From assembly GCA_963783885.1 (NCBI GenBank), contig CAWAPJ010000001.1:64001-128000 (forward strand): a DNA stretch of 64,000 bases. Direction: 5' to 3'. Numbering within the stretch: the stretch's first letter is position 1; every line of letters starts with the position of its first letter. This DNA is from Waddliaceae bacterium. Its GTDB lineage: Bacteria > Chlamydiota > Chlamydiia > Chlamydiales > SLFE01. Made by a program: the position numbers and the translations under genes. Below the pieces are notes generated by a model. It ran no database searches. It saw only the letters and a list, made by a program, of their open reading frames with translations, and was not told where the DNA came from. Shown here one piece after another: positions 2,987-39,758 of the stretch.

Positions 2987-4759
2987 TTAATCAATAGTTT
3001 CGATTGAAACACCGTTTTTTTCAAGAAGTAAAATCAATTCAGGAGAATAAATTGTGGGGTTTTCTGTAATCATTCTTAAGTGGCGGACGCAAGGCTTTTC
3101 TCCTTGATCAATAAAACTTTTGACCCGCTTGTAAGTTTCGTCATTTTGATTATAAATAGCAAGAGATATGGGATCTTTCAGAATTTCATTCGTTAGAGGC
3201 GGTTTAGACTCGCCGTTTTGCGAATTTTTGCGTTCCTTCAGTTTTTTGATCAATTCATGAGTGACATCTTTTGGTTGATACAAAATAGATTGAATGACAT
3301 TTTTGATTGTCAAATGAAACCCCTTCTCCATAAGACTGAAAATTATTTCTTTGTTCGATGTTTGTATCGCATTTTCTAAAAGCCGCTGATTTCGATCATT
3401 TGCCTCAAATAAAGCCTCCTTTTCAAGCAAATGTTCAAAGAATTTTCTTTTAGGAATCTCGTGGAAACCCATCTCCAACTCGAAGCTTGGATGCACTCTG
3501 CTCTGTATCAAAAGTTCAAATAGGCCGGGAGAATTTTGGACATAAGTCTCAATAAGTTTTTTCAACTCGGCTTTATTCATTTTTGGATAGCAATCTGTCG
3601 CTCCGAATAGAGCATCAAGGTTTTTTTTATTATCAAGTTCATTTGAAGCCATTTCATTTGTAATCTTTAACCCATACATGCGCGCAAGTTTAATGATAAA
3701 TAATGACCTTTCGCTTTTGCTGCTTAGCAATTTCCGGAGCTGACTCGTAGATAATTGATACCCGGAAATAAAAAAGACATGCAAAAGCTCTATGCTATAA
3801 TCCACACATTCCTTTCCGCTTACTACTTGGTTGACAAGTTTGTTAAATCCCCAGTTATTTAATAACGTACCTTTATAAATATGAGTAACCAAATCTCTTA
3901 AGGAATCTTTATCGGGATTATTGATGATGTCATTAAATTTTCTAAAAGAGTGATCGGGCGACTGAGAATTCATAAAGAAATATTCATCTGCGACTGAATG
4001 CGGGCCGCATTTAAACTGTTCTTGGCAAAATGACGTCAAATGCCTGCTGGCAAAACTTCTATGATACTCTTCGGGAGAAACTTTATTTTTCAGTAAAAAA
4101 TCAACAATCTTTTTAAGATGATCCTGGCAGTACCTGAGAGCAAAAGTAAAACATGAAGCACTGAAGCATTGCTTAGAAGTTAATGCCTCCAAAATATCCA
4201 CAGTATGAGAGGTATCATTAACAAAAAGGAAATTAATGTTCTCATCTTCTGGGACATATCCTATGCTCAAAAGAGCTTCCACCACTGCGGCGGTATGTTC
4301 GTTCTGATTCTGAAAGAGAGTGCGATATATGTCATAGGATTGCAGGCTCGACCCTTCTTTAAGCCATTCTGAAATCAACTTTGGCGAATCTTCTGTCAGA
4401 GATTCCAGTTCGAGGTGCAGGCAATTATCATTTCTCTGAATTTTCCATTGATTCCAATATTTCTGCATCATGTTGTTGATAATCTTATTGACATGATCTT
4501 TATTCCAGCGCAAAGGGTCGTTGCCCAGTTGCTCTAGTTGTGCAAGAACGTTCTTTTTTAGTTCTTCAATCTGACCATCTAGATGGGATATCGCTCCAAT
4601 CGCTTCAATGTCGTGCTCTTCAAGATAACATTCTTGGATTTTACGCGATGAGATCCAATCTTTAAAAATCGTTCCAAAGCGTTGAGACCTTTGTTTCGAG
4701 GGTGAAAAATCGGCAAACTCCTGGCAAACCCTATTGGCAAAGTTAACTTCTGAAACCAT
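2987..4759 (-). CDS. hypothetical protein with degenerate ankyrin-like helical repeats (candidate effector)
   Basis: 590-aa AT-rich ORF; recurring units VEALLSIGY, VDFLLKNKV, IFSLMEKGF, LLLEKNGV. Confidence 0.6.
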   Translation of the reverse strand: MVSEVNFANRVCQEFADFSPSKQRSQRFGTIFKDWISSRKIQECYLEEHDIEAIGAISHLDGQIEELKKNVLAQLEQLGNDPLRWNKDHVNKIINNMMQKYWNQWKIQRNDNCLHLELESLTEDSPKLISEWLKEGSSLQSYDIYRTLFQNQNEHTAAVVEALLSIGYVPEDENINFLFVNDTSHTVDILEALTSKQCFSASCFTFALRYCQDHLKKIVDFLLKNKVSPEEYHRSFASRHLTSFCQEQFKCGPHSVADEYFFMNSQSPDHSFRKFNDIINNPDKDSLRDLVTHIYKGTLLNNWGFNKLVNQVVSGKECVDYSIELLHVFFISGYQLSTSQLRKLLSSKSERSLFIIKLARMYGLKITNEMASNELDNKKNLDALFGATDCYPKMNKAELKKLIETYVQNSPGLFELLIQSRVHPSFELEMGFHEIPKRKFFEHLLEKEALFEANDRNQRLLENAIQTSNKEIIFSLMEKGFHLTIKNVIQSILYQPKDVTHELIKKLKERKNSQNGESKPPLTNEILKDPISLAIYNQNDETYKRVKSFIDQGEKPCVRHLRMITENPTIYSPELILLLEKNGVSIETID

Positions 4760-20982: not shown

Positions 20983-22039
20983 TCATTTTTTGGTGGTGAA
21001 AGTGTTTGACAAGAGCAGAGGTCACCTCGTCGATCTCTCCCTGCATAGCTCGATCGAGATGATATAAGGTCATGTTAATACGGTGATCGGTCAAACGGTT
21101 TTGAGGGAAATTATACGTGCGGATCCTTTCGGAGCGATCCCCTGTCCCTACCTGCAAAGACCGCTTCGAGGCCATCTCTTTTTCCCTTTGTATTCTCTCC
21201 TGTTCAGCAATTTTCGCCGAAAGAAAGCGCATTGCCTTTTCCTTGTTCTTGTGCTGGCTCCTCTCTTCCTGGCAGGCAACGACTATGCCGGTCGGAATAT
21301 GCGTGATGCGGACAGCGCTGTCTGTCGTGTTGACATGCTGTCCTCCCGCTCCCGAAGAGCGGAACGTATCGATCCTCAGGTCTTTTTCTTCCACCTTAAC
21401 TTCTTCCTCTTCGGAAGGTTCGGGAAGTGCTGCCACTGTGATGGCGGAAGTATGGACCCTCCCTTGAGCTTCGGTTTCGGGAACTCTTTGCACCCGGTGG
21501 GTGCCCGCTTCGTGCTGGAGGAACCTGTACACATTAGACCCGGAGAGAACCATAACGTATTCTTTAAACCCTCCCATTTCGGAAGGGGTGCAGGAGAGAA
21601 GTTCATAGCGCCATCCCATACGGTCGGCATAGAGCTTATACATTCTGACACAATCGGCAACGAAAAGAGCCGCCTCCGCCCCGCCCGTACCGGCTCTCAG
21701 TTCCAGAATTGTATTGCGGTTGTCCAAGGGATCGGGAGGAACAAGAAGGTTGTCAAGTTTGACTGTCAGCTCATGAACCACCTTTTCCAGCTTCTCTATA
21801 TCTTCTTCCAAAACGATGGTAAATTCGGGATCTTCTTCACTTTCAAGCATTTTTTGATTATCGCCCAGCTGATGCTCGGCATTTTTCAATTCGTTCCAGC
21901 AATTCTTGATCTCGGATAATCGGGAGTGCTCCTGGGTCAAGGTTCGGTACTTTTCCTGATCCTGGATGATATCAGGCTGGCCGAGAGCCTGCTCGACTTC
22001 GTCCAACCGGCTGATCAGAGACTTTATCTTTTCTTCCAT
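20972..22039 (-). CDS. prfA: peptide chain release factor 1
   Basis: PET anticodon loop (VQRVPETE), GGQ motif, [14 protein letters not shown]. Confidence 0.97.
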
Positions 22040-22632: not shown

Positions 22633-23706
22633 ATGATCAGCTGTTATCGCCTGGGTGGGGCCATTAAAAGGCCTCCTTTTTTTGCTCTCAATTCCTACTG
22701 GAAACGCTATTCAATTCATTACTTTCCAGGGATTAGCGGTCCTATAGGAGGCATTTTTCGAATAGCTATCAGCAGCCTGTACGGGTTCTACCACACCCTG
22801 TCCTTAAAAACTCATCAGATTAGGCCATTGCCCGGAGGATTTAAGAATCCCAATCAATTCTGTTTCGGGCATGCTCTTTTTCAGGTTCTCTTTGCTTCAG
22901 ACAAATTTTCAAAATATTTGTCGCCAAAGAAACACAGTTTGAAGCCATACCACAATGAAAACTCGGAAAATTTAAACCTGAGAATCAAAGTCCAGCATCA
23001 TCTCAATAAAATGCGAAGAAAAATCACTGGTCACAAAACCGTAAGCGCTTCCGAATCCTTCCGGCTAAGGCATCAGTTTCACCTCGCAAACCACAATATT
23101 CCTGAAAAAGGACAATGGGATCTTTGCGAATTCTCCGATCACGTTTTCAAAATAATAGAGGTTCCTCCTATAGAATTTTCTTTAGATGTCCTCCCTCTTC
23201 GCTATTTTGCCAATTCGTTTTATCTCAATCCCAATATGATGAGAGTTAAGAAAACCATTTCCCTGGATTCAATTCCACTTCTTAACGAAAAACTTGAAAC
23301 AATACCGGAAGATCCCGAAATTATCAGCCAGCTGCCTAAAGTGACACTAAAAAACATTATGTTCAACACAAAGCACACTCCAGACTACCTATCGGTTCAA
23401 ATTTCGCGCTTTCATCATGATTTGACATCGACTAGGAAAAAGTCTATTCAACTCAAAGATATCTCCCGACTCAAGTTCCGCCTGAACAATTCGAAAGATA
23501 AAATCGATTATCAACTTATCGGATCCTGCGAGCACGAAGGTACAATTAGACAAGGACACTACTATTCAATTATCCGCTATCTTCATGAAGGAAAGCATTA
23601 TTGGATCAAATGCGACAGCGCTTCAATATCCTTTTTTAACACTAAAAAAGTCAATGACATGATAGGCAAAAAGGGGTGTTATTATTTCTATGAAAGAGTA
23701 TCATAG
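22633..23706 (+). CDS. ubiquitin-specific protease (USP, peptidase C19)-like protein, candidate effector
   Basis: Cys box GFKNPNQFCFGHALFQVL; His box YQLIGSCEHEGTIRQGHYYSII; WIKCDS. Confidence 0.75.
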   Translation: MISCYRLGGAIKRPPFFALNSYWKRYSIHYFPGISGPIGGIFRIAISSLYGFYHTLSLKTHQIRPLPGGFKNPNQFCFGHALFQVLFASDKFSKYLSPKKHSLKPYHNENSENLNLRIKVQHHLNKMRRKITGHKTVSASESFRLRHQFHLANHNIPEKGQWDLCEFSDHVFKIIEVPPIEFSLDVLPLRYFANSFYLNPNMMRVKKTISLDSIPLLNEKLETIPEDPEIISQLPKVTLKNIMFNTKHTPDYLSVQISRFHHDLTSTRKKSIQLKDISRLKFRLNNSKDKIDYQLIGSCEHEGTIRQGHYYSIIRYLHEGKHYWIKCDSASISFFNTKKVNDMIGKKGCYYFYERVS

Positions 23707-34865: not shown

Positions 34866-35908
34866 ACCCTGATTGCTACCTAAACTTGTCGTTAAGGTCT
34901 TTCATTGAATTCAGATGCGTAGACTCGATTTGAAGGCAAGGGTAATCCTTTGCCGATAATCGAGGCTTAGCAGATGGATTCAATGAAAGATTTTAACGGC
35001 AATAGACTCATGTGATAATTCCTTAACCAAAAAAAGGAGTACATCATGGAAACTTATGCAATAACCGTTGATGTCATCAGCGAAGAAGTCCTTCGAATTT
35101 TAGGGGTTAAAGACGATCCTCAATCTCAAATGTCCAATGCAGAAGTTATAACTTTTGCAATTTTATCAGCAAAATATTTTTCTTGTAACTATAAAATATC
35201 CAGATATTTATGTAAGAGATTGCGATTATTCACAACTATTTTAAGCAATAGCCGACTTAACCGTTGAATCCATAAAATTCCCTGGACTTGTTGGAACGCT
35301 ATTTTCCGTTTTTTAGCTTTATTTTTTAAACAAATAAATAAAGATCAAGGTTTTGCTATAGATAGCTTTCCAGTTTCTTGCTGCCAGAAAAATAGAATCG
35401 ATAAACGGAAGATCTTTCTAGAGCGAAGGTTTTTTGGTTACGCAGCTTCTAAAAAGCGTTATTTTTGTGGCATAAAAGTTCATATGATTGTGACGAGTGA
35501 AGGCGAGCCGGTTGAAGTTCTTTTCAAGCCAGGAGCAGTAAGCGATGTAAAGGTACTCTGGGAGATGGAGTTGGACATACCGCCAGATTCTAAACTCTTA
35601 AGCAGATGGCGCCTATAATTGTTTTGATCTAGAGGACATCTTGCATGAAGAACAAATTACATTGCTTGCAAAACGGGGATGCAGAACGAAAAAACGGGTC
35701 CGAACACCTATTGAAGAGAGGGAAATCAGTAGCAAGCGACAAATTGTCGAAACGACGTTTAGCTGTATAACAAATCTTTTTCCTAGAACTTTTAAGGTCT
35801 GCACTGAACAAGGCTTTTTGATAAAAGTATTCTGTACAATTCTAGCCTATAGCGTTTCATTTTTATGCAATAGTAAGCTCTAGCTGAGGTTTAGGTAGCA
35901 ATCAGGGT
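34866..35908 (+). mobile_element. diverged IS982-family element with pseudogenised transposase
   Basis: Same TIRs, 5-bp direct repeat CTAAG; premature stop at 35265 and stop/frameshift near 35600; lacks the right-end nested hairpin. Confidence 0.92.
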
Positions 35909-36299
35909 CTAAGGCAGCTCTATTACTTATTTGAGTCATATCTTCATCAGAAAGGTCAAAATCAAAAACATTGAAATTATCAGCAATGTGGCTTGGATTA
36001 GAACGGCTTTGTTCTCTAATCGCGCCGTTTTTAGTCAAACATTTTCTCTTCTCCATAAAGAATTTTGAAAAAAGTCTCTTTTATCGCCATAACACACTCC
36101 CTTGGTTCTCTCCGGGATCTACTTTGGAGAGCGGTTTTCTCTGCTCTCGTCCCAATATATTTTTCGAAATAAATCAGGGCAGGCTATGTTGCGTGCGGAG
36201 TCTAAAGCTCCAAACAAGGCCGCGCCTTGACCTGATTCAAATCGGTATGTGTTTCTGGCTTAAAAATTAACTTCTCTCCACCATTTATTCTGGCTTCAA

Positions 36300-36366
36300 G
36301 CTCTGCTTTCCTCTTTTTTCGGCCTCTCACCCGGACTTGAAGGCCGAAAAAAGAGGAAAGCAGAGC
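36300..36366. repeat. perfect 26-bp inverted repeat in the IS110 3' non-coding region
   Basis: GCTCTGCTTTCCTCTTTTTTCGGCCT / AGGCCGAAAAAAGAGGAAAGCAGAGC with a 15-nt loop. Confidence 0.9.
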
Positions 36367-36375
36367 GGGGTAAAT

Positions 36376-37434
36376 TTAAGCTGCTACCGGTTCCTTTTTT
36401 ATACTCTCTTCCTTGCTGTCTCCGTACCGGAAGGGTTCGCGTTTCAAAAGCATCGCATGCATGATGACAGCCAGCTTCCTGCCGAGGGCAACTGTCGCCT
36501 TTTTGAAGCCCTTTTTTCTTTGAAGTTTCAACGCCCATGCCTTAGGTTTACACCAACTTCTAGTTCGGCTTAGCATCACAACTGCCGACTCCACTAACAA
36601 CGACCTGGTTTGTCTAGATCCGCACTTTGACACACGACCTAATCTTTGGGTCTCTCCTGAGGAGTACTGCCTTGGTGTTAGCCCCAAAAATGCAGCGACG
36701 TTCTTCGAGTTTTTGAAGCGGGTGTAATCACCAATCGCCACGAGATAGCTCAAGGACGTTAAAACCCCGATACCAGGAATTGTCATCAGCAGTTGGACAT
36801 CGGCGTTGTCTCGAGCTATCGACGAGATCTGTTTCTCGAGGTTGGTTATTTGTTCGGTTAAACATTCATATCCCTTTAAAAGTGCTTCGATAGCTGCTTG
36901 TACGGAGCTTATTTGATCTTGGATGCACTCCCGAACCAGCTTGATAAACAACAACTTTCCGGTTGTAGAAACAGTTAGTCCATAAGCTTTTAAAAAACCG
37001 CGAATTGCATTTTTTAGCTTTGTGCGCTCTTGAACCAGGGTGCTCCTTGACTGAAGGAGAACGCCTGTATCGACAAGCTCTTGGTTTTTGACGAACACCT
37101 CTTTGTAAAAGCCTCCTCGCATGGCATTAGCTATTCCCCGCGCATCATTGGTATCTGTCTTGTTGATGTTCATGGACAGAATCGAGGACATATGTCTTGC
37201 ATCCACGCATAGGACTGGGAGGCCGAGCTTTCTTAGCTCAGTAACCAACCAGTGGCTTAGGGAGCCTGTTTCAATCCCAATCTTATCGAGCTGAACCCCG
37301 GTTTTCAAAAGCTTCCGTTGGATTGATGAGGGGTCTGTTTTGGTATGTCCTTCATACACTACCTCTCCTTGGTGGTCTACGACACAAATAAAAGTCTCTT
37401 TCAAAGATACGTCTAATCCTACATAATGGTTCAT
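36376..37434 (-). CDS. IS110-family DEDD recombinase/transposase
   Basis: GLDVS, IETG, KTDTNDA (DEDD); TIPGIG, GLTPRQYSSG (catalytic Ser), VALGRKL. Confidence 0.95.
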   Translation of the reverse strand: MNHYVGLDVSLKETFICVVDHQGEVVYEGHTKTDPSSIQRKLLKTGVQLDKIGIETGSLSHWLVTELRKLGLPVLCVDARHMSSILSMNINKTDTNDARGIANAMRGGFYKEVFVKNQELVDTGVLLQSRSTLVQERTKLKNAIRGFLKAYGLTVSTTGKLLFIKLVRECIQDQISSVQAAIEALLKGYECLTEQITNLEKQISSIARDNADVQLLMTIPGIGVLTSLSYLVAIGDYTRFKNSKNVAAFLGLTPRQYSSGETQRLGRVSKCGSRQTRSLLVESAVVMLSRTRSWCKPKAWALKLQRKKGFKKATVALGRKLAVIMHAMLLKREPFRYGDSKEESIKKEPVAA

Positions 37435-37622
37435 GGCTGCTTCTCCTTTTTGGTTTTGGCCTTCGAGGCCGTGTTATTCCAATGGAGAGTTTATATAAAC
37501 TACTCCGCGGCGTTTTGCCAGAGAAGCAGCCTTTCGTTTAACTAAGCAGCGCGATTACAATATGTTGCGTAATTAACCACAGAGCTCACAAGAGCGCACA
37601 GAGAGAATATGAGAGATTTGAT

Positions 37623-38567
37623 TTAAGCTGCTATTAATTCACTTTCAGGCATTCCCAGCTTTGTCATTATATTTAGTGCTTCACATTTTGCCCTTGATTC
37701 AGCCCTTTGGGTTTCCAGAGTTCTACTTCTTAAATCATTTCCAAAGAATCGTTTAAATCTAAACATGGCTGTTTCTGCAAGTGATCGACGATGATAACCT
37801 TTCAACTTTTTCCATAATTTTCTTGCATCATCATCACCTCCTAAACCTGAAATTTCCAGCAAACTGATATTCCGCATCTTCCAAGAAGGAGATATGTTTT
37901 CTCGAAAAACAGCATTCCTATTGGGTGGAATAATAGGAATTGAGCCGTGAACTACATTTGCAGCATAGCATCGCTTAGTATCATAAGCCCCATCTCCATA
38001 TGTGCGCTTAACTGATTTCGGCATTACCTCGAGAAGTTTTGGATACACTTCACAATCTGCAACGTTATTTTCAGTAAGAATTTCGAAAATAATTTCGTGA
38101 GAGTCAGGGCAGACTGCCAGATGGAGCTTTCTCCATGTTCGCCTTTTACTGATTCCATGCTGCCTAACTTTCCATTCACCCTCTCCGTACACTTTCAAAC
38201 CGGTTGAATCGATTACAATATTGGTGACTTTTTTTTTCGAAAGTTTCTTCAACTCTTGCCCCAACAACTTAGCTCTCCGACAAATTTGAGTATAAGAAGG
38301 AATCGATAAACCAACAGATAAAATCATAACAAGAGATGTCAAAAATCCTTCGAGTGCTCTCAATGGAAGATGAAAAACCGATCGAATAATGAGCGCGGTG
38401 AGAATAGCGTCATCAGAATAGAGTTTTGGACGCCCCTTTTTTCCTATTTCTTTTGGAGCCATCCACTTATTGATAGCATCTTCAGAAAACCAAACAGTTA
38501 TGCTTCCCCTTTGAATAAGAGATTTGTTATAGTCGTTCCAGTTGCGAATGCGATATTTTGCCTTCAT
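37623..38567 (-). CDS. IS5-family (IS903 group) DDE transposase
   Basis: NWNDYNKSLIQRGSIT.W, IDSTGLKVYGEGEWKVRQHG, RRTWRKLHLAV, GDGAYD, YHRRSLAETAMFRFK. Confidence 0.95.
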   Translation of the reverse strand: MKAKYRIRNWNDYNKSLIQRGSITVWFSEDAINKWMAPKEIGKKGRPKLYSDDAILTALIIRSVFHLPLRALEGFLTSLVMILSVGLSIPSYTQICRRAKLLGQELKKLSKKKVTNIVIDSTGLKVYGEGEWKVRQHGISKRRTWRKLHLAVCPDSHEIIFEILTENNVADCEVYPKLLEVMPKSVKRTYGDGAYDTKRCYAANVVHGSIPIIPPNRNAVFRENISPSWKMRNISLLEISGLGGDDDARKLWKKLKGYHRRSLAETAMFRFKRFFGNDLRSRTLETQRAESRAKCEALNIMTKLGMPESELIAA

Positions 38568-38651
38568 CTTGATCCTCCAATTTGTTGCAACTAAAAATTA
38601 GAGTATTAGGTATTTGTCGGCAAGCTCGCATTCGCCCTTTTTGGAGAAAAG

Positions 38652-39059
38652 ATGACTAGTACCCACACAACTGAAGAAGCCAACCAAAAAAGAAATGACC
38701 TTTTAACAGGGGAAATCATAGGTGCTGCGATTGAAGTTCATCGAAGATTAGGTCCAGGCTTGCTTGAATCGACATACGAAACTTGTCTTTGCTACGAGTT
38801 GAACCTTGCGGGTTTGAAAGTTAACCGGCAGATACCAGTACCTATTATTTATCGTGATAAAAAGCTAGACTCAGGCTACCGGATCGATATGATAGTGGAA
38901 GATAAGGTTATTTTGGAGATAAAATCTGTGGCCAATCTCTTGCCTGTTCATGAGGCCCAACTTCTATCCTATCTTAAGCATAATGGCGGTGGCAGAGGTT
39001 TGCTCATCAATTTCAATGTAAAACTTCTAAAAAATGGGATTAGGCGTCTAATCATTTAA
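38652..39059 (+). CDS. GxxExxY family protein (PD-(D/E)XK nuclease fold)
   Basis: IIGAAIEVHRRLGPGLLESTYE, YRIDMIVE.KVILEIKSV, HEAQLLSYLK, GLLINF. Confidence 0.93.
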   Translation: MTSTHTTEEANQKRNDLLTGEIIGAAIEVHRRLGPGLLESTYETCLCYELNLAGLKVNRQIPVPIIYRDKKLDSGYRIDMIVEDKVILEIKSVANLLPVHEAQLLSYLKHNGGGRGLLINFNVKLLKNGIRRLII

Positions 39060-39758
39060 TTCCTCTCTCATAATCTCTCAGTGAGCTCGGTGGTCTCAGT
39101 GGTGATTTATGCAACAACGCCGATTAGAACTGCCGGGCAAGGGAATAACCTCTTTTTGAATGATCCAGCGCAATGCAACCTGCCCGGAGCTTTTGCCATA
39201 TTTCTTGCCAATTTCAACAAGCCCCGCATCATTAGCAAGTTTTCCCCGATTTAGTGGCCTCCATGCTTGTATTTTAATCTTATTTCTTTGGCAGAAAGAG
39301 ATTAAACTGTCATCGCAATAGTCGGGATGCATTTCATTCTGAACCCATGATATGGGAACACCCACATCAAAAGCTCGTCGAAGATGGTTGATTGTCACGT
39401 TGCTCATTCCGATTTCGCGAACTTTACCTTCTCTTTGTAATTTCTCCATTGTTGTGAGAGTTTCGGTAACGCTAGTTTGACTGTTCGGCCAAAGGTAATT
39501 GGTGATTTCTGAATAAGGTCATTTCCCAGATGTTATGGTGTTCATGATGACTCCTTTAGAAAAAAGAAAATTCTAAACACTCAACTTAAATTGGTCAATT
39601 TATTCGTCGATTTAGAAAGGGAGCCTGGGCAGTATTTCTTACCAGATCTCGAGGCAAGCTGGGCAGGATGTTGCTTCAGATTTGTTTTTAAATGCCCTCT
39701 GGCATTGTCTGATCGATAAGACGAGGGCATTTGAGGACGAAGATGGAGTGACAAACTG

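Follow-up and report, generated by a model that had tools for sequence, protein, structure and literature searches.

The targeting of the terminal repeats of other mobile elements by insertion sequences (IS) is already in print. Muller, Lauf and Hermann are said to have described in 2001 that IS1383 inserts in the inverted repeats of IS1384 in Pseudomonas putida H, and Partridge and Hall reportedly found in 2003 that IS4321 and IS5075, of the IS1111 group, occupy terminal repeats, 38 bp in length, of transposons of the Tn21 family. The element described here is a further case. It lies in a 64,000-nucleotide (nt) stretch of DNA (hereafter the window) from a Waddliaceae bacterium of the Chlamydiales, where an IS1111-type member of the IS110 family has split the left terminal repeat of an IS903-like element of the IS5 family, which we call IS-B. 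Like IS4321 and IS5075, the window element has subterminal inverted repeats, generates no target duplication and occupies one position in the terminal repeat of another transposon. In contrast, their target is the repeat of a Tn3-family transposon, and that of the window element is an IS5-family repeat. In a table of PMC5141477, IS1383 and IS1384 are assigned to the IS110 and IS5 families, respectively. The likeness to our locus, drawn from title and family labels only, is that of an IS110-family element aimed at the inverted repeat of another IS, whereas the host of the window element belongs to another phylum.

With regard to RNA guidance, the window element resembles ISEc11, ISPa11, ISKpn4 and ISPst6, whose seekRNAs are associated, in the account given in PMC11187229, with a 3′ arm downstream of the recombinase gene, a GL-P----SG motif and subterminal repeats. 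In the same account, seekRNAs make two short matches to the two target strands, which overlap at the crossover. Their 5′-to-3′ order is that predicted for the window element, with the guide complementary to the top strand located 5′ of the bottom-strand one. The published RNAs were demonstrated by co-purification and reprogramming, according to the corresponding parts of Siddiquee et al. 2024 (PMC11187229), whereas that of the window is predicted. The bridge RNA of IS621, as outlined in Durrant et al. 2024 (PMC11208160), is also similar in having two loops and four guides, with the core dinucleotide in every guide. However, it is encoded upstream of the gene, within the left end, its guide order is reversed and its core is CT. 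We consider it very likely that our locus holds one RNA-guided IS1111-type element, with a DEDD recombinase and a two-domain bridge/seek RNA in its long 3′ arm, inserted in an IS903-like repeat.

Limits of the element and family assignment

A first-pass annotation of the window had noted a 10-nt word, TATGTTGCGT, on both sides of a recombinase gene and had delimited an IS110 element accordingly, at 36185-37570. There are two exact copies of this word in the window, at 36185-36194 and 37561-37570, far beyond the chance expectation of 0.03 (0/100 shuffles reached two). The observation is thus real but mis-delimited. Excision of 36013-37565 (1,553 bp) yields an intact 1,564-bp IS-B, which has two mismatches relative to an uninterrupted copy and is flanked by a perfect 9-bp duplication of its target. 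In contrast, excision of the 1,366-1,376 bp of the first-pass span leaves 177-187 surplus bases, which are present in no intact IS-B copy. The true element is a 1,553-bp IS1111-type (IS110-family) insertion sequence on the minus strand, at ~36011-37565 if the core GT is counted at both junctions.

The filled site reads GGCTTT-GT-element-GT-TGCGTAATT and the empty sites read GGCTTTGTTGCGTAATT. The insertion point is therefore between G7 and T8 of the IS-B left terminal repeat (nt 7-8), and not at nt 13, within the first 13 bp of the IS5 end, as had been proposed. Donor and target overlap by at most 4 nt (TGTT), common to both junctions and to the empty site, and TGTT alone can be assigned to either side of the junctions. 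Neither a 10-bp core shared by donor and target nor the notion that the two are nearly the same sequence survives this comparison. The core is most likely a dinucleotide, GT on the plus strand or AC in the RNA sense, because in other lineages of the clade AC (RNA sense) are the sole letters common to both junctions. The right 10-mer (37561-37570, plus strand) consists of TAT, the tip of the left end, followed by the core GT and by TGCGT, which represents nt 9-13 of the IS-B repeat. The left 10-mer is internal to the element, inside its 3′ non-coding arm, and appears to be a guide rather than a duplicated target, as described below.

In contigs of two other sequencing runs, the stretch 36005-37572 stays together; the flank switches at 36004/36005, and none of these contigs breaks at 36195. 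The window's own genome has two copies of the stretch between the 10-mers, which are 100% identical, and the 190 bp to the left of it are also common to both (98% identity at the copy on contig C19). We also analysed relatives of the element, from Chlamydiales and metagenomic loci, whose recombinases are 45-64% identical. They have a counterpart of 36013-36194, a stretch of ~190 nt, after the recombinase gene, with a conserved right-end motif at its far end; outside the two ends, the sequence varies from locus to locus. Left- and right-end motifs are 1.35-1.69 kb apart in 40/77 locus records scanned, corresponding to 33 distinct elements. When 40 related genomes were searched at the DNA level, close copies turned up in the window's own genome alone.

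One might regard 36013-36194, with the RNA gene and the right end, and the recombinase part as two separable modules, each able to move by itself, whose boundary is marked by the 10-bp direct repeat, by comparison with ISPpu9/ssr9. The 10-mers are indeed direct repeats around the recombinase part, and PMC12288879 includes a description of circles that contain the transposase gene, either by itself or together with the RNA gene, and of others that contain just the RNA gene. Nevertheless, this arrangement is very improbable. The two parts are found together in all 40 loci that have both end motifs, and a BLAST search of the left stretch in its own genome returned only two full copies and short right-end remnants. 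Neither a solo RNA module nor a recombinase part devoid of the RNA module was found in that genome, and no contig skipping 36195-37560 was seen in four runs, keeping in mind that contigs can miss rare forms.

Even less credit can be given to the model of an element of ~1,366 bp delimited by the 10-mers and inserted 13 bp into the IS5 end, with the 10-mer as a long common core. In addition to the recurrence of that word on both sides of the recombinase gene, GGCTATGTTGCGT at 36182-36194 resembles an IS903-type repeat tip with one change, and the left 10-mer had been taken for a piece of the IS5 end. However, IS-B starts at 36005 (GGCTTT), straight after its 9-bp duplication GATTAGAAC, which adjoins 36005 and not 36182. 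Moreover, relatives with mutually unrelated 5′ flanks retain 36013-36194 after their recombinase gene, and the surplus bases and the flank switch described above also argue against this model. Finally, a homologous-recombination chimera of the left end of one IS5-family element (called IS-A), an IS110 copy and a second IS5-family element (IS-B), to which the 98% identity of the 190 bp at the C19 copy, seemingly paired with a 43-bp inverted copy located beyond a different IS5-family transposase gene on C19, might have pointed, was dropped as scarcely credible. The relatives, all of which conserve the 190-bp stretch, show that it belongs to the element. The 43-bp copy is what remains of a right end of this IS1111-type element in the opposite terminal repeat, and the 9-bp duplication is as expected if the element simply inserted into IS-B.

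The single IS1111-type element that we favour codes for a 352-residue DEDD recombinase (36376-37434, minus strand), and the earlier assignment of this gene to the IS110 family is borne out by domain analyses. The protein harbours the N-terminal PF01548 domain (DEDD_Tnp_IS110; 72.6 bits) and the C-terminal PF02371 domain (Transposase_20; 87.4 bits), and it scores 270 bits against NF033542, 'IS110 family RNA-guided transposase', for a cut-off of 140. Its C-terminal domain, and only that domain, aligns to the IS621 transposase (E = 2.6e-16). The motif GLTPRQYSSG, at residues 251-260, fits the GL-P----S(t)G motif described for IS1111 transposases in the relevant passage of PMC11187229.

As in the IS110 family, insertion is site-specific and takes place without target duplication, with just a short core in common. 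Several traits of the IS1111 group were also found, i.e. subterminal inverted repeats (7-17 bp), a longer non-coding region downstream of the recombinase gene and the C-terminal motif. The right-end subterminal inverted repeat, TAATCGCGC on the plus strand (36017-36025), is conserved in relatives and has its inverted copy at 37549-37557, within the 129-bp left end (37435-37563, minus strand). The non-coding arms measure 363 nt at the 3′ end (36013-36375) and 129 nt at the 5′ end (37435-37563). As judged from its subterminal repeats, long 3′ arm, GL-P----SG motif and predicted guide order, the element can be assigned to the IS1111 group.

Target sites within the genome

The element to the right of the insertion had been assigned to the IS5 family, and this holds. 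The remainder of IS-B (37566-39121, minus strand) comprises a transposase gene, a passenger gene and the right terminal repeat, which ends at 39121. The IS903-like transposase (37623-38567, minus strand) harbours PF13737 and PF01609; it scores 289 bits against NF033579 and shows 44% identity over 99% of its length to an 'IS903B family transposase'. The passenger gene (38652-39059, plus strand) codes for a GxxExxY PD-(D/E)XK protein (TIGR04256, PF13366). The tip of the left terminal repeat, GGCTTT followed by the core GT (36005-36012, plus strand), was severed by the insertion, as indicated by uninterrupted sites in the genome. The left copy of the 9-bp target duplication is found at 35996-36004, and an identical 9-mer is found at 39122-39130. 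Target duplications of 9 bp are typical of the IS903 group, and in this genome they flank the IS-B of the window and six other IS-B copies. The terminal repeats of IS-B begin with GGCTTTGTTG, as do the IS903B ends read from locus L089.

IS-B is 1,564 bp long and has nine full-length copies in the genome, which align throughout their 1,559-1,564 bp, including the passenger gene. Nine uninterrupted sites read GGCTTTGTTGCGTAA, eight of them in full IS-B copies and one in a derivative on contig C16. An uninterrupted IS-A-type tip on contig C14 represents the empty site of the IS-A type, and 10 exact empty sites are still unoccupied.

We determined the positions of all right-end junctions found in the window's genome. 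There are six of them, two from intact copies and four from remnants, and 6/6 follow GGCYTT, the tip of IS903-type repeats. These junctions are distributed over one miniature derivative and two or more distinct IS5-family elements. The window copy lies in the left repeat of IS-B, and the C19 copy lies in the left repeat of the second IS5-family element, IS-A. A remnant at C19 ~4586-4628 (43 bp matched, including the repeat tip) is found in the right repeat of IS-A. Thus, IS-A has been hit at both ends, since its right repeat has this remnant and its left repeat has the intact second copy. Another remnant, on C10 (~82050-82081; 32 bp matched, including the repeat tip), comes directly after GGCYTT. 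The last two junctions are footprints of the right end, one of 16 nt at C12 ~21774-21798, where it lies within the left repeat of a miniature IS-B derivative of ~77 bp, and one of 21 nt inside an IS903-type repeat tip (C43 ~23000-23021). These two footprints, each between two GT cores, look like imperfect loss of the element. The idea that the window element is an RNA-guided hyperparasite of IS5 ends therefore holds for this genome.

A metagenome contig (L014) carries the same IS-B composite, i.e. IS-B with its guest, at another place, with three differences in 3,121 bp. No clean 9-bp duplication was found at its site, and for this reason L014 does not establish that the composite moves as a unit. 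In a mangrove metagenome contig (run X12), reading leftward from the IS-B body at 37576, letters similar to those of the right end replace IS-B's own in the repeat tip; this tip could represent a further footprint or a natural variant of the repeat. Two open reading frame fragments on the plus strand (35046-35267 and 35641-35883), immediately to the left of the IS-B duplication, resemble pieces of another broken transposase gene.

The predicted guide RNA

Alignment of the 3′ arms of the relatives revealed a conserved layout, in which a long stem surrounds an internal loop and a small hairpin separates the two sides of the loop. The 5′ side of the loop consists of a variable 6-mer and GT, and the 3′ side consists of a variable 5-6-mer and AC, followed by an invariant AT. 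In each element, the variable block on the 3′ side repeats the sequence of the 5′ flank of that element, and the block on the 5′ side is the reverse complement of its 3′ flank. To quantify this relationship, we started from the 33 aligned elements, kept the 23 whose anchors were in register and whose flanks both measured 9 nt or more, and reduced these to 14 distinct guide pairs. The 3′ block, i.e. the left target guide, matches its own flank at 4.93/6 positions versus 2.18/6 for the flanks of others. For the 5′ block, i.e. the right target guide, these values are 5.07/6 and 1.79/6, respectively. In both cases, none of 20,000 permutations reached the observed value. Guides and flanks thus co-vary, and the guides are complementary to both target strands and overlap at the core, as in bridge and seek RNAs.

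In the window element, the predicted bridge/seek RNA extends over 36093-36246 (minus strand). From the folds and the compensatory pairs, it would form two stem-loop domains, with a guide on either side of each hairpin. Flank co-variation identifies the left 10-mer (36185-36194, minus strand) as the left target guide (5 nt) and the core (2 nt), followed by 3 nt equal to the left-end tip; the 10-mer is longer than the guide because of these three further letters. They recall the handshake guides of IS621, as presented in the pertinent part of Hiraizumi et al. 2024 (PMC11208158), and may correspond to them. A hairpin predicted by the folds (36197-36211, minus strand) separates this guide from the right target guide (36214-36221, minus strand), also identified by flank co-variation, which reads ACAAGGCC on the plus strand and GGCCTTGT in the RNA sense. 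The right target guide matches the IS-A-type repeat tip of contig C19 exactly, and that of IS-B with one mismatch. A check proposed in the first-pass annotation was to look for ACGCAACATA in the predicted RNA loops; the left 10-mer itself turned out to be the loop sequence.

The second domain harbours the putative donor guides. The left donor guide (36105-36112, minus strand) is an 8-mer with the letters of the element's own right-end tip, at 7-8/8 positions in 20/20 relatives, and the variant ends of L017 and L044 are accompanied by the matching change. The right donor guide (36155-36160, minus strand) is complementary to the first letters of the left end. Its first 4 nt are the reverse complement of the left-end tip in 17/20 relatives, across five tip variants. 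Thus, guides and ends also co-vary.

The predicted RNA of the window element folds with a z-score of -3.57. Constrained folds yielded the two-domain architecture in 20/20 relatives, and compensatory changes are present in two helices, in 5/20 and 8/20 sequences, respectively. We infer that the 3′ arm encodes a two-domain bridge/seek RNA, whose transcription and binding to the recombinase are predicted.

Several observations weigh against this interpretation of the locus or limit its reach. Only 1/9 full-length IS-B copies is occupied, and activity on IS-B may be low, given this proportion and the mismatch of the right guide. Outside the subterminal repeats, the element has a left tip of ~6-8 nt and a right tip of 4-6 nt, according to where the core is counted; these lengths do not fit those quoted for IS1111 elements in the text of PMC11187229, which are 7 (or 6) nt for the left tip and 3 nt for the right one. 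RNAalifold gave just 10 pairs on a plain MAFFT alignment; the fuller architecture comes from single-sequence folds with the guides forced to be unpaired, and no Rfam family reached its cut-off with the predicted RNA. Among the sequencing runs listed as containing the stretch, none is an RNA run. The co-variation analysis left out 10/33 elements on account of short flanks or out-of-register anchors (L017, L022, L029, L036, L037, L038, L039, L045, L049 and L055). One of the 14 guide pairs, that of L057, fits its flanks badly (2/6 and 2/6), and the relatives are kin, so that the permutation figures overstate independence.

Judging from its homologues IS621 and ISEc11, insertion may proceed as follows. 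In the first predicted domain of the RNA, one target guide has the letters to the left of the insertion point, i.e. the left 10-mer, and the other is the complement of the DNA to its right. In the second, the two donor guides match the right and left tips of the element itself. Once made and bound to the recombinase, the RNA would enable the complex to pair the element, in circular form, with the outermost ~15 bp of an IS903-type terminal inverted repeat. Strand exchange would then take place at the GT/AC dinucleotide, 7-8 nt into the repeat, without target duplication, although the exact cleavage positions are only presumed. At this locus, the left repeat of the 1,564-bp IS903-like element has been split.

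A long, near-perfect hairpin of ~27 pairs (36291-36373, minus strand) is also found in the 3′ arm, directly downstream of the recombinase stop codon; no U run comes after it. Two relatives (L015 and L016) appear by eye to possess a similar hairpin, of different sequence, at the corresponding position. A search of Rfam with the window hairpin at permissive thresholds returned only sub-threshold look-alikes (Phe leader, microRNA precursors).

Relatives, circle junction and implications

We next examined the sites of the relatives. The flanks of several of them resemble IS903-type tips. No IS5-family gene was found among the seven flanking open reading frames scanned for the relatives with long flanks (L006/L054 and L035), and at these loci the repeat-like site has no inverted partner. 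The flank of L054 gave one weak second match in the search. That of L035 adjoins an unrelated repeat of ~75 bp, with 96 matches in the 1.7-Mb genome G227, often in tandem ~119 bp apart. Other lineages have quite different, lineage-specific sites. Multi-copy relatives with conserved sites of their own, unlike IS903-type tips, are present in genomes G303 (L044, L067-L070), G310 (L048, L071-L073, L080) and G088 (L053, L076-L078). They add natural cases of guides that have been re-targeted. Thus, the habit of settling in IS ends is established for the window element only and not for its relatives.

A conserved TTGACT hexamer similar to a -35 box is present near the right end (36033-36038, minus strand) and is also seen in relatives. 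In the computed circle junction, the arrangement TTGAC(N)-17/18-CATAYT is found in 12/20 relatives (L006, L017, L021, L023, L035-L038, L040, L049, L056 and L057), with CATAYT starting at the last base of the core. It would constitute a junction promoter in those 12 elements. At the computed junction of the window element, the distance between the hexamers exceeds this spacing and the best pair reaches only 8/12. The promoter that had been read across a junction as TTTAGA-17-TGTAAT resulted from joining the wrong ends. Within the integrated element, three promoter-like sites were counted versus 1.7 +/- 1.6 in shuffles, and thus there is no excess.

The insertion might also have consequences for the mobility of IS-B. 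The outer end of the composite now reads GGCTTTGT followed by right-end letters, and 13 of its first 18 positions are identical to those of the original IS-B repeat. Because of this agreement, the IS-B transposase might still move the 3.1-kb composite as a single unit. In that scenario, which we put forward as a speculative and rather unlikely one, the guest rides on its host element, and its imperfect loss, of which the short footprints between two GT cores would be the trace, creates new terminal-repeat variants of IS5-family elements. If true, this would represent a vehicle-and-passenger partnership that also reshapes transposon ends.

The known mechanism is unchanged by this case. It illustrates a risk of mis-delimiting such elements, because a sequence resembling the target lies within the element, in its guide gene. 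It also provides a second example of an IS110-family element living in IS5-family ends, in environmental Chlamydiales, a little-studied host group. Together with its relatives, the element represents a natural data set on RNA-guided target choice, with 14 re-targeted guide pairs, their sites and co-varying donor guides.

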